From: a virus
Taxonomy: Duplodnaviria; Heunggongvirae; Uroviricota; Caudoviricetes
Length of the DNA: 18,148 bases
Strand: one strand, 5' to 3'
IMG/VR virus record: IMGVR_UViG_2609459852_000016
The notes under the pieces were generated by a model. It searched no databases. It saw only the letters and a list, made by a program, of their open reading frames with translations, and was not told where the DNA came from. The number at the start of each line of letters is the position of its first letter. The stretch's first letter is position 1. The position numbers and the translations under genes are program-made. Of the stretch, positions 13,621 through 18,148 are shown in pieces.

Positions 13621-14114
13621 TACTCCTCCTGCTGTAATTCCTCCTCATCATCCGCACCTGCTTCAGTCACCCGCAGGGCTTTCTGATCGCGCAGATCATC
13701 AATAATGGACTGAACACGGCTCACAGCGGCAGGCTGCAGACCGCAGTCACGTTCAAGAATATCCGGTAATGTCTCCAGCACCTGCACGACCGCTTTTGCC
13801 CAGATGGCAAACTCCCGTCTGACATCACTGGCCGGAATGAGTTGTGCCGTTTCCTGTTCGAACTTAAGACGCTCACGTTCAGACTGATACCAGGCTTTGC
13901 GCTCATGCGCGTCCATTTCGCCTTCTGCAACCGGCGGTGGTAATGCCAGAAATGCCGACACAATATCAACCACCCGATAAAGCTTGAGGTTGCTTTCATG
14001 CCCCCCTGCAACGGGTAGATTTTGCAGCCTTGCCGCAGCAGTCTGGCGATGTACACCTGACAATGCCGCCAGTTGACTGATATTCAGCGTCAGATTTTTT
14101 AACTCTCGATCCAT
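13620..14114 (-). CDS. Terminase small subunit (lambda Nu1-like)
   Basis: N-terminal HTH-like LNISQLAALSGVHRQTAAARLQ. The start lies 186 nt from the putative cohesive end (lambda Nu1 starts at about nt 191). GGAG SD. Confidence 0.75.
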   Translation of the reverse strand: MDRELKNLTLNISQLAALSGVHRQTAAARLQNLPVAGGHESNLKLYRVVDIVSAFLALPPPVAEGEMDAHERKAWYQSERERLKFEQETAQLIPASDVRREFAIWAKAVVQVLETLPDILERDCGLQPAAVSRVQSIIDDLRDQKALRVTEAGADDEEELQQEE

Positions 14115-14205
14115 ACCCGCTCCAGAATGTTTTAAACATGCATCTTGCGAACAACTTTAGGCAAACGGTGTTAGTGATGAACAAAAAACAATCAGAATCG
14201 ACACC

Positions 14206-14246
14206 ATAAAAATAAAACCACTGTAATATCAATCAATTACAGTGGT
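14206..14246 (-). other. Perfect 11-bp-stem hairpin plus U-tract in the cosB position (terminator-like or terminase/IHF site)
   Basis: Plus-strand accactgtaat-atcaatca-attacagtggt (14217..14246). On the minus strand it is followed by UUUAUUUUUAU (14206..14216). Confidence 0.4.
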
Positions 14247-14283
14247 GGTGATGACGAATAAAATTTCAAAAACTAGCCTTTTT

Positions 14284-14300
14284 CCGCGACGCTCCCGCCC
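14284..14300 (-). other. Candidate cos site (cosN-like cohesive-end sequence)
   Basis: Minus strand reads GGGCGGGAGCGT-CGCGG, against lambda left end GGGCGGCGACCT-CGCGG (from memory), followed by a GAAATTTTA...TTCGTCAT motif similar to the lambda cosB region. Confidence 0.5.
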
Positions 14301-14666
14301 CGTGGCAGGGACCCCCACTGGGAGGACCCGACAGCCTGACAACCGTGACGAGCATCTGAAACAGAGCTTTACATAATGGCATGGGGATAATTCAGAAGGA
14401 CATCACAGCATGCCCACACAAATTAGTGTGAGTGTCCTGTTTCTTACTACGCGCAGGACTGACGAGCATGAGGGGAAAATACGCGAACCGAAATGCCTTA
14501 TCTTCAGAAATGCAGCCGGCATCCGAACTGGACGATATTGTAAATTCACCTAAATACGAGGCATTGCTGTAGTTGAATTGCAGTACTGTATTAGCCTTAC
14601 AGTGACAGAATACGATATTGACTCTGTCACTTGTGAAATGGTCAGAATGGTTAGCAGTTATGGTGA

Positions 14667-14873
14667 TCAGTCAACCACCAGGGAATAATCCTTCGTATTC
14701 TTATCGTGCTTTACTAACGCGGCCTCAATTGCCCTGAATGCTTCCAGAGATACTTGATGTTCTATACATGCAATTACAACATCCGGGTAACCCATCGAAA
14801 TGGTGCTATTAAGCATAGTTTTTACACGAACCTGCTCCTGGGAGGGGGCATCAGTGTATTGATCTTTATGCAT
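14667..14873 (-). CDS. Hypothetical small protein (68 aa), cargo gene of unknown function
   Basis: ATG at 14873 with GGAG 9 nt upstream; balanced amino-acid composition; no motif recognised. Confidence 0.5.
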
Positions 14874-15168
14874 TTTGTCGCTCCATTCGTTTGCTCTTCA
14901 CTTGCGGCTAAAAATATAACGTCAAATCACTCAGCATGAAAGAGTGAAAGTTTCAGCGCGTTTCCCTCACATAATCTGTCGTTTGTATTCTCTTCAGGCA
15001 TACCGGAAAGACTAGGTATTGTCACACAACCAATACCATCGACAATCGAGATTTATATCTATTCGGTAATGTTTAAATATAACAAAACCCCGTAAAAACG
15101 AGGTTTATGGGTAATTTGTATTGTTGAATAGCATCTGATGAGAAATTGATGCTAATACTATAAACATG

Positions 15169-15342
15169 CTAGATTAAATCAATCTTGATATCATAGCTTT
15201 CAAGACCAGTCATTTTTTCCCGTGCAGTAAACTGGATACTGGTAACTTCTTTCCCGGTCTTTTTCTTAAGCTCAATGATTTTTTTTGTTATATATTCAGA
15301 AATATCTGCTTCTGTTTTTGTTTTTAACTCTTCAATGTTCAT
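15169..15342 (-). CDS. gnsB: GnsA/GnsB-family protein
   Basis: MNIEELKTKTEADISEYITKKIIELKKKTGKEVTSIQFTAREKMTGLESYDIKIDLI closely resembles E. coli GnsB (from memory). ATG at 15342 with AGAGGA SD. Confidence 0.75.
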   Translation of the reverse strand: MNIEELKTKTEADISEYITKKIIELKKKTGKEVTSIQFTAREKMTGLESYDIKIDLI

Positions 15343-15514
15343 CATTTCCTCTTTTAGTCTGTTATGACTGTCCTGGTACACAGTAGTGTCAATTATATGG
15401 AGCAAACGTATAAAAGATAAGATGAAACATCGCAATAATCAACATACGACGGTCTAAATTTCACACAAACAGATAAAGATGATTATCATTTATTATCAAT
15501 GCATTAGAATCAAA

Positions 15515-15745
15515 TCAATTCAAGAGTCTCATTGCTGCTTCCAGAATTTCTTCTGAAGTTACATGTCGATCCGCTGCTACATAAATGACTTTATGATCTC
15601 CGGTCAGAGATGGAAACCCTGCAGCCATTACAGTGAGGTGTGTTGTTTCGCCATTTGGATATTCACGCATGATGGTGTTAACTCCGGTCATCACTGGCAC
15701 TACCATTGCTGGTTCAGAGTTAAAAAAAACTATTATTTTTTTCAT
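15515..15745 (-). CDS. Hypothetical 76-aa protein (possibly YmcE/YnfN-like by position)
   Basis: ATG at 15745; the longer track ORF starts with GTG inside the upstream terminator hairpin. It sits between the gnsB-like and cspI-like genes. Confidence 0.5.
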   Translation of the reverse strand: MKKIIVFFNSEPAMVVPVMTGVNTIMREYPNGETTHLTVMAAGFPSLTGDHKVIYVAADRHVTSEEILEAAMRLLN

Positions 15746-15789
15746 AATGTTACCGTAATATGTGAGTATCCATCGACTAGACACTAAGC

Positions 15790-15809
15790 AAAAAAGCTCC
15801 CGAAGGAGC
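15790..15809 (-). terminator. Intrinsic terminator downstream of cspI
   Basis: Minus strand: GCUCC-UUCG-GGAGC followed by UUUUUU. Confidence 0.6.
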
Positions 15810-16016
15810 CTTCATTTTCACTTTCTTAAATCTAACGACAGATGGCTAACATTTAAGTATTGTGAAATATTATCAAATGTAATCATCATTGATTTACAAA
15901 AGATACATTTTGCCCCGAAAGGATTTCTGTCAGAAACATCAAAAGATGATGTTCTATACTGAGAACCATGGCAACACGGGCATCTAAAGTGAATATGGTT
16001 TGTAATATTTTCTACC

Positions 16017-16229
16017 TCAAAGTGCCACTACATGAACAGCTGCAGGGCCTTTAGGTCCGTTCTCAATACCAAATTCGACTTCCTGATTCTCAGTTAACGT
16101 TTTGAAATCGTTGCTCTGAATAGCTGAGAAATGCACAAACACATCTTTGCTACCATCTTTCGGCGTGATGAAACCAAAACCTTTTTCAGGGTTAAACCAT
16201 TTCACTAAACCAGTCATTTTGTTAGACAT
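16017..16229 (-). CDS. cspI: CspA-family cold-shock protein (CspI-like)
   Basis: [38 protein letters not shown]...: cold-shock domain with RNP motifs, near-identical to E. coli CspI as I recall it. AAGGTAATA SD-like leader. Confidence 0.9.
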
Positions 16230-16592
16230 CATTATTACCTTTTGAAGAAGTTAGCCCTTGGGCAGAATGGTCCGAAAAAAAATATCAGAGAGAAAAACCA
16301 ACAAGGAAATCTCAAGAGGTACAAATAATAAAATTATAACAATGACTGCTTCAGATAATTTTGTAACAAACCAGAACACCATTAACGCATGATTAACCAA
16401 CCATAGCAAGGATTACTTTTGTAAAGAAAAACACACGAATGAAACAATAGCTTTATTTATTAATAAAACGTGTCATTCTGTCTAATGACCTTTTATCTTA
16501 CCCTTAAGATTTCAAGGATTTTGACTCATGGAAGAGTCCTTTTTATTTAAATTTCACATTCAGCGCTAAAAATAATCCGATTTAATATTAAT
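16230..16592 (-). promoter_or_regulatory. AT-rich promoter and long 5-prime leader region upstream of cspI
   Basis: About 360 bp without ORFs between the Rz stop and cspI start. Contains a TATAAT on the minus strand (plus-strand 16333..16338). Cold-shock genes typically have long structured leaders. Exact promoter not resolved. Confidence 0.3.
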
Positions 16593-17616
<1,024 letters not shown>

Positions 17617-17620
<4 letters not shown>

Positions 17621-17928
17621 AGATATTTATGATGAGGACGCTCGTGCTTATTGGCAGGATTTTCAATCTTAAAGGAGTACTGATGCTGCAGATAAGACTC
17701 AACTTTTTCTGACAATTTTTCTGCTACTTCCAGGAAGACTTGCCGGACGCTCATTCTGGCTGCTGCCTCATAAAACTCCAGCGCAGCTCCTTCAACACGG
17801 TCCATGGCGACATCCAGGCCAAAAATTTCACTGTCAAAGCGTTCTTTGTCCTGTAAGGCTACAGTTACCGTAACTTTATTCTCAAAATTACGGACTCCTT
17901 TCACAACCAGTTCATAGTCTTGAGTCAT
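17617..17928 (-). CDS. ydfR: YdfR-like protein (DUF1327) between holin and endolysin
   Basis: 103 aa; matches E. coli Qin prophage YdfR as I recall it; same position as in Qin. Confidence 0.75.
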
Positions 17929-17932
17929 TGGA

Positions 17933-18148
17933 TTACTCTCCTCTCGCAGCCTTACGCCTGTCTTCTTTAATCTTGAAATAAAGATTTGTCAGATACGTCA
18001 GCATGCCAAATACCAGACTACCCAATACACCTATTGCCGCCCACTGTGAGGGCGTGACTTTATCGAGCAACTGTAAAAACCAGTAGCCAGCACTGCCTGC
18101 AGAGGTGCTGTAGGCGATGCCCGTTGTTAACTTATCCATGGATTTCAT
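17933..18148 (-). CDS. S: Phage-21-type pinholin (S21-like) with dual-start motif
   Basis: [71 protein letters not shown]: 71 aa, two transmembrane domains, Met1 and Met4 starts as in S21 antiholin/holin. The start codon is the last three bases of the window. Confidence 0.9.

Follow-up and report, generated by a model that had tools for sequence, protein, structure and literature searches.

The small gene upstream of cos in a lambdoid Escherichia phage: an allele of the conserved, uncharacterised lambda gene p79/ybcW

Reported properties of lambda p79 and K-12 YbcW

The closest described counterparts of the gene analysed here are p79 of phage lambda (47738-47944, hypothetical protein; also written lambdap79) and ybcW (b0559) of DLP12, a cryptic prophage of Escherichia coli K-12, whose protein sequence is identical to that of lambda p79. 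What has been reported on the prophage gene concerns its transcription. In K-12, ybcW mRNA is detectable in growing cells and is 8.9-fold lower in a pdhR deletion mutant, and a PdhR site has been reported in the ybcV-ybcW intergenic region (PMC7660256); the same spacer, upstream of ybcW, is an FNR ChIP target with a consensus site (PMC1802558), and overproduction of Hha raises ybcW 17-fold (PMC2408971). Strong induction on perturbed H-NS silencing and a convergent transcript overlap of ybcW with ylcI are also described in the literature on K-12 and its DLP12 prophage.

The phage gene has been approached from lytic infection. CRISPRi on lambdap79 brings the efficiency of plating (EOP) down to 3e-4, the gene being nonetheless listed as non-essential, and the same authors document the polarity of CRISPRi in phage operons (PMC10695390); the loss of EOP despite non-essentiality thus fits polarity on downstream late genes. 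A study of coevolution between lambda and E. coli flagged a pair of mutations in the intergenic DNA past lambdap79 as lowering infection efficiency (bioRxiv 10.1101/2024.01.08.574707). More recently, the gene has been connected with Vulcan, a defence protein made of an N-terminal NIR NADase and C-terminal HEAT repeats: seven of seven lambda-vir escapers of Vulcan had lost lambdap79, probably by recombination with Qin, co-expression of lambdap79 and Vulcan was toxic, and plasmid-borne lambdap79 alone activated Vulcan, with NAD+ depletion (bioRxiv 10.64898/2026.09.04.749371, September 2026). The Vulcan data concern the lambda allele, from which the allele studied here differs at 14 of 68 residues.

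Identity, conservation and genomic setting of the gene

The window, as we will call the whole stretch of DNA analysed (18,148 nucleotides, virus record IMGVR_UViG_2609459852_000016), contains an ORF of 68 codons, from ATG to TGA, at 14667..14873 of its minus strand. Its protein matches the PHROG 657 profile from end to end (residues 1-68 aligned with all 68 profile positions, E 4.6e-48), a family annotated as of unknown function. By tblastn it is 79.4% identical in amino acids to lambda 47738-47941, that is, lambdap79; at the DNA level, megablast of 14000-15500 aligns 14522-14989 with 47629-48090 of lambda J02459 (82.6% over 462 bp), and identity over this stretch is 82.6-83.1% for lambda and K-12. 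Matches in E. coli genomes are annotated as “hypothetical protein” or “ybcW: protein YbcW”, and the p79/YbcW identity held both in reciprocal best match and in synteny. The ORF had been presented in the preliminary description as an orphan to which no family could be assigned; since a word-indexed protein search returned 1336 relatives, lambda p79 among them, and the full-length PHROG 657 match leads to lambda p79/YbcW, both statements have to be withdrawn. Identical copies are also on record: phages HannyBb and mEp460 are 99-100% identical to the window over 14000-15500 (megablast), the module of ~470 bp described below being 100% identical, and this region is likewise 100% identical in the prophage of E. 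coli L725 and in Escherichia ruysiae.

The gene and its immediate surroundings are as follows:
14881..14884, minus strand: Shine-Dalgarno GGAG, 7 nt 5' of the ATG, within a 16-nt block invariant in seven alleles
14667..14873, minus strand: coding sequence of 68 amino acids, lambda p79/E. coli YbcW orthologue (PHROG 657), assigned by profile, identity and alignment
14874..14989, minus strand: 5' flank of the module, ~78% identical to lambda in the alignment, with no sigma-70-like promoter detected on the minus strand
14522..14666, minus strand: 3' flank of the module, 80% identical to lambda (42% beyond), holding the hairpin and the invariant 20-nt block GTGAATTTACAATATCGTCC
14601..14631, no strand assigned: perfect 9-bp inverted repeat AGTGACAGA-N13-TCTGTCACT (arms 14601-14609 and 14623-14631, 13-nt loop)

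An alignment of seven alleles, extended by 200 nt on the upstream side and by 380 nt on the downstream side, shows the reading frame intact in every one. The GGAG noted in the preliminary description stands, at 14884..14881, with a spacing to the ATG of 7 nt and not 9; motif and start codon are both invariant in the seven-allele alignment, and the stretch ATGGAGCGACAAAATG is unchanged in every allele aligned. Over residues 16-68, dN is 0.041 and dS 0.277 between the window and lambda (dN/dS 0.15), and 0.025 and 0.195 between the window and Tritos (dN/dS 0.13), while the first 15 codons give dN/dS values of 0.8-1.2 in both comparisons. These values point to a constrained core, with residues 16-68 under purifying selection, and to a free N-terminal tail, the first 15 residues varying freely. 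The view of this ORF as a genuine small protein gene is thus borne out by the end-to-end PHROG match, the frame kept in all aligned alleles and a dN/dS of ~0.1-0.15 in residues 16-68. Frame disruption in relatives, which had been named as a sign against a real gene, was not what the comparison returned: the ORF is intact across alleles up to 21% apart in protein, with a few decayed copies (P0004, with a replaced C-terminus, and the truncated P0034).

Between the window and lambda, identity is 78% in the 120 nt upstream of the ATG, 73% in the first 45 nt of the ORF, 92% in the rest of it, 80% in the 150 nt past the stop and 42% farther on, a profile that delimits, as judged from this alignment, a mosaic module of ~470 bp which includes non-coding flanks. 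Lambda p79 has the same length (68 aa) and is ~91% identical over residues 16-68, so that of the 14 differing residues five fall in the core and nine among the first 15; lambda also shares the Shine-Dalgarno block, the place at the end of the late-strand genes ahead of cos, the conserved 3' flank and the core of the hairpin. The surroundings differ: the upstream neighbours are the divergent ybcV-like p78 and bor in lambda, but gnsB, on the same strand as the ORF, in the window; a ylcI-like ORF lies between p79 and cos in lambda, whereas no ylcI homologue was found between the ORF and cos in the window; and the small terminase is Nu1 in lambda and a DUF1441 protein here. In K-12, the DLP12 order essD-rrrD-rzpD-bor-ybcV-ybcW-(ylcI)-nohD shares its synteny with the ORF of the window, whereas two features of ybcW have no counterpart there: the ybcV-ybcW intergenic region, from which the reported PdhR, FNR and Hha inputs come, and ylcI, with which its transcript overlaps convergently.

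For the neighbouring genes, coordinates were transferred from the identical prophage of E. coli L725, as annotated in RefSeq:
18148-17933, minus strand: holin
17928-17617, minus strand: YdfR/DUF1327
17620-17087, minus strand: endolysin
17090-16593, minus strand: Rz with embedded Rz1
16229-16017, minus strand: CspI
16006-15818, minus strand: YmcF
15745-15515, minus strand: YnfN
15342-15169, minus strand: GnsB
15085..15106, minus strand: terminator-like hairpin of nine pairs with the T-rich tail TGTTATATTT, directly after gnsB and upstream of the ORF
14289..14300, minus strand: cosN-like cohesive-end 12-mer GGGCGGGAGCGT (lambda: GGGCGGCGACCT), matching the ends of the phage Tritos linear record
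14114-13620, minus strand: DUF1441 small terminase
13620-11518, minus strand: large terminase

For GnsB, an ORF call from a TTG start (15169-15435) is over-extended, the annotated gene being 15169-15342. The linear record of phage Tritos ends in ...CCCTGCCACG and starts with GGGCGGGAGCGTCGCGG; since both are contiguous in the window, the cohesive-end 12-mer is placed at 14300..14289, 366 nt past the ORF stop and 175 nt before the start of the small terminase (14114), and the proximity to cos given in the preliminary description is confirmed. Between cosN and the small-terminase start lies an 11-bp perfect inverted repeat (ACCACTGTAAT/ATTACAGTGGT, 8-nt loop, 14217-14246) followed on the minus strand by TTTATTTTTA; it has a terminator-like score and sits at the place expected for a cosB-type terminase or IHF site.

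Synteny was compared in 11 loci: mEp460, Tritos, lambda 4W, PhiR30_1, K-12 DLP12, O157:H7, APEC O78, L725 and three other E. coli prophages. In every one, the ybcW-like gene occupies the same slot, closing the series of late-strand genes ahead of cos and the small terminase; its upstream neighbour is gnsB or the divergent ybcV (DUF1398), what follows downstream is ylcI or nothing, and at least three types of small terminase stand beside it (Nu1/NohD, DUF1441 and another). Phage vB_EcoS-569R4 has the same terS/terL/cos region and no ybcW. The assignment to a cargo or accessory region is therefore upheld, given that the lambda orthologue is non-essential (PMC10695390) and that phages with the same terminase and cos occur without the gene. 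K-12 has a single copy of the module, annotated beside DLP12 genes, so Qin is without it. The lysis and cargo region of the window (15169-18148) is of the Qin type (essD, ydfR, rrrQ, rzpQ, cspI, ymcF, ynfN, gnsB), joined here to a ybcW module that is absent from K-12 Qin and to a DUF1441 small terminase, with a clear mosaic junction near 14990.

The family is widespread within a narrow range. A 501-bp region is present in 2013 of 5426 complete E. coli genomes (37%), and by tblastn the gene is carried by only 40 of 50,697 phage records, all of them Escherichia lambdoids or lambda itself. An exhaustive profile search of 1.84 billion representatives (50% clustering) gave 219 matches, and nearly all of the seemingly divergent ones turned out on inspection to be frameshifted, error-ridden copies of lambda p79. 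A wider taxonomic range was considered and rejected, the matches outside Escherichia in a GTDB species scan being lambda control-DNA contaminants. Lambda-type ybcW/p79 is found on contigs or “plasmids” of ~3.5 kb, as well as on larger contigs of ~48.4 kb (loci L012-L045; P0055, P0110, P0121-P0264; H87-H96) assigned to Staphylococcus, Synechocystis, Acinetobacter, Cohnella, Pseudomonas and various MAGs, many with frameshift-like errors; these off-taxon copies almost certainly come from lambda DNA used as a control or spike-in and left in public assemblies, and they make the family look more diverse and wider in host range than it is. The only truly distant homologue is P0162 (63 aa, 56% identical), and a search seeded with it gave no further relatives. 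With contaminants and degraded p79 copies set aside, the family is thus narrow, essentially that of Escherichia/Shigella lambdoid prophages, and highly conserved.

P0162 retains a 25-residue stretch and the C-terminal YSLLVD although its flanking DNA is unrelated. It lies at positions 273-464 of locus L004 (also in L005), at the end of a 26-kb contig of non-lambdoid, enterobacterial character; on the opposite strand, its neighbours are UCP030791, two DUF7828/Zn-ribbon proteins and a weak REP_ORF2-G2P match, and the locus shows no adjoining cos/terminase region, no downstream hairpin and no match among the phage records. Another variant, P0210, begins with the N-terminal 43 residues of a YnfN-like protein, nearly matching the window ORF 15515-15745, and continues in the same frame with the last 25 residues of YbcW; a deletion joining the YnfN and YbcW genes at a shared LEA motif seems to have produced it. 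A relationship between YbcW and YnfN, prompted by this fusion, was discarded, with an hhalign probability of 0.4%.

Expression and the inverted repeat past the stop codon

The ORF shares its strand with the lysis and terminase genes. In lambdoid phages, the Q-antiterminated late transcript runs from the lysis genes through the joined cos into the head genes, and the ORF would be translated from such a transcript as it crosses cos into the terminase genes. Because a terminator-like hairpin stands directly after gnsB, read-through into the ORF would need antitermination. A mirror-image terminator candidate is found on the plus strand at 15089-15111, so the gnsB cargo unit may end in a terminator that works in both directions. 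A consensus scan, which is an insensitive method, detected nothing promoter-like from gnsB to the ATG on the minus strand (14874-15106), where a weak or activator-dependent promoter may lie within 14874-15085; a scan of the same strand between the ORF stop and cosN found no terminator-like site. In the alignment, the lambda and K-12 alleles have the FNR site TGTTGATGATTTATGTCAAATATT and the window does not. Transcription of K-12 ybcW in a cryptic prophage and its response to PdhR, FNR and Hha favour a role in the prophage state in at least some contexts. Judging identity and expression route jointly, we regard it as highly probable that the ORF is the lambda p79/YbcW allele of this phage, read from the late transcript.

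A 9-bp inverted repeat 36 nt past the stop had also been described, as something other than a U-tract terminator and possibly a protein-binding site. The repeat is confirmed at 14601-14631, and so is its lack of a U-run on either strand; the terminator scan did not report it. In dinucleotide shuffles, a 9-bp repeat appears in 1.5% of cases within 100 nt of the stop and in 19.5% anywhere in the 1.1-kb region, so that the repeat by itself is only mildly unusual. Its 8-bp core GTGACAGA/TCTGTCAC is invariant in seven of seven alleles and its loop varies (the 13-nt loop has five differences from lambda and an indel); since other blocks of 19-20 nt in the 3' flank are just as invariant, the arms do not stand out in conservation. 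Folded as RNA, the hairpin reaches -14.9 kcal/mol in the window (z = -4.8) and -12.5 kcal/mol in lambda, and the whole 151-nt flank folds only marginally better than its shuffles (z = -1.9).

Several identities were considered for this element and set aside. An intrinsic (Rho-independent) terminator was rejected, as there is no U-run, the stem is not rich in G+C (four of nine pairs are G-C; on the minus strand it is followed by GUAAGGCUAAUAC, on the plus strand by UGUGAAAUGG) and the element is absent from the terminator scan. The lambda cosQ-cosN-cosB unit measures roughly 200 bp. The hairpin lies outside such a unit, ~300 nt from cosN in the window and ~500 nt in lambda (by arithmetic from the p79 stop at 47944 and the genome end at 48502), and from the module with the hairpin to cosN the two phages have unrelated sequences (42% identity); with a distance to cosN that is not fixed, the hairpin is not a cos subsite. 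CRP, FNR and LexA half-sites were likewise dismissed, the spacing of the repeat misfitting their consensus when judged by eye. The simplest reading is that the hairpin is probably a stem-loop of the 3'-UTR in RNA form, acting as a stabiliser or as a processing site; the repeat may also be a candidate protein-binding site in DNA.

Proposed role and competing explanations

The protein has 7.7 kDa, a mildly acidic pI of 5.4 and a GRAVY of -0.29; reading of the sequence alone reveals no evident signal peptide or transmembrane segment, and the protein is predicted to be cytoplasmic. The AlphaFold2 model (pLDDT 67, pTM 0.42), computed from a shallow input alignment of 13 sequences, has helices at 12-27, 30-38 and 43-58 and a disordered N-terminal tail at 1-11; the moderate confidence of the model and its small alignment make the notion of a “helical adaptor” a weak one. 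The C-terminal YSLVVD is invariant in 12 close alleles, the counterpart of YSLLVD in P0162. Family scans with Pfam, NCBIfam and PADLOC gave no match, nor did a sequence-profile search of the PDB, and a fold search with the predicted structure gave no usable match; known DNA-binding or enzyme folds (Pfam, NCBIfam, PDB) showed no significant similarity in sequence or structure. Rather than working as an enzyme or binding DNA, the protein would probably act as a small adaptor or inhibitor that binds other proteins.

The Vulcan escapers and the toxicity of co-expression show that lambda p79 is produced during the lytic cycle, can be dispensed with and is detected, directly or indirectly, by a protein-interaction module, hence its reading as a late-expressed, non-essential, protein-binding accessory factor. 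As its most plausible native role, we tentatively suggest a non-essential host-modulating or counter-defence function in late infection, a proposal that has clearly less than an even chance of being right. The earlier suggestion of host takeover would agree with the finding that lambda p79 triggers Vulcan. Defences of this kind also respond to structural and replication proteins, and the status of trigger is no proof of a counter-defence role.

A more specific form of this proposal, which we regard as speculative and rather doubtful, is that YbcW/p79 is a late counter-defence or host-takeover protein of Escherichia lambdoids and that the HEAT repeats of Vulcan evolved as a bait or guard that binds it directly. 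If so, the dN/dS of ~1 in the N-terminal tail, next to ~0.13 in the core, would reflect an arms race with sensors, and the conserved 3' hairpin would tune the protein yield from the late transcript. By way of analogy only, lambda p79 resembles T7 Ocr, which triggers PARIS, and T4 Stp, which triggers PrrC, in being small, dispensable and acidic-leaning; like proteins of this type, it is sufficient on its own to activate a suicidal defence (here an NAD+-depleting one), and phages escape by losing the gene. Ocr and Stp have known native anti-defence activity. They act early, whereas p79/YbcW is expressed late, and they have no similarity to it in sequence or fold.

Among the competing explanations, an unlikely one is that of a lysogenic-conversion moron, expressed from the prophage under host regulators to the benefit of the lysogen, like the neighbouring bor in lambda. 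The ORF shares with morons (bor, lom and the gnsB/cspI cargo of the window) the variable region between the lysis genes and cos, and its ~470-bp unit is, as they are, a non-essential and separate mosaic module; furthermore, the mRNA of ybcW in growing K-12 cells with its fall in the absence of pdhR (PMC7660256), the FNR target upstream of it (PMC1802558), its induction by Hha (PMC2408971) and a module kept intact in 37% of complete E. coli genomes, many times in decayed prophages such as DLP12, speak for a gene serving the lysogen. Against this, the FNR site and the ybcV-ybcW intergenic region that holds it are absent from the window, and on the minus strand neither a promoter-like site from gnsB to the ATG nor an intrinsic terminator past the gene was detected, so the anatomy of a moron was not found; bor and ybcV are on the opposite strand, whereas the ORF of the window is on the late one, the protein is predicted to be cytoplasmic, with no export signal evident by reading, unlike Bor and Lom, and Vulcan is triggered in lytic infection by lambda-vir.

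The constant slot directly upstream of cos and terS, kept in 11 of 11 loci despite changing neighbours, would be explained by an accessory role in DNA packaging, with the protein or the 3' hairpin assisting terminase or cos recognition, and the conserved 3' flank with its inverted repeat and the infection-lowering mutations downstream of lambdap79 (bioRxiv 10.1101/2024.01.08.574707) agree with it; yet lambda without p79 forms plaques (the Vulcan escapers, and its listing as non-essential, PMC10695390), vB_EcoS-569R4 has the same terS, terL and cos region without the gene, at least three unrelated small-terminase types stand beside it, and the hairpin, ~300 nt (window) or ~500 nt (lambda) from cosN, falls outside the ~200-bp cos unit, all of which makes packaging an improbable explanation. 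Finally, the ORF could be incidental to a conserved non-coding DNA or RNA element, such as a recombination linker or an sRNA, seeing that the flanks come close to the ORF in conservation (78-80%, the ORF having 92%) and that the first 15 codons are neutral. This we hold to be extremely improbable: changes over residues 16-68 are mostly synonymous, with a dN/dS of ~0.13-0.15, the Shine-Dalgarno and ATG are invariant, P0162 keeps frame and core motifs at 56% identity and with unrelated flanks, plasmid-expressed lambdap79 alone activates Vulcan (bioRxiv 10.64898/2026.09.04.749371), and Rfam gave no match at E <= 1 over 14100-15500.

The ORF is thus real but ordinary, a known conserved gene that had been mislabelled as an orphan, and a false “orphan” can be struck from the list; the gene, its family and the exact allele are already in public records, and the lambda orthologue has a recently published phenotype. 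At the same time, it is among the most widespread uncharacterised genes of lambdoid phages: lambda and K-12 DLP12 have it, and so do 37% of complete E. coli genomes. Mapping of what Vulcan recognises can start from the allele series and from the division into a constrained core and a free tail. Prophages that carry the ybcW module, that of the window included, may be sensitive to Vulcan-type immunity, from which escape by gene loss is easy, through recombination with ybcW-less prophages such as Qin.
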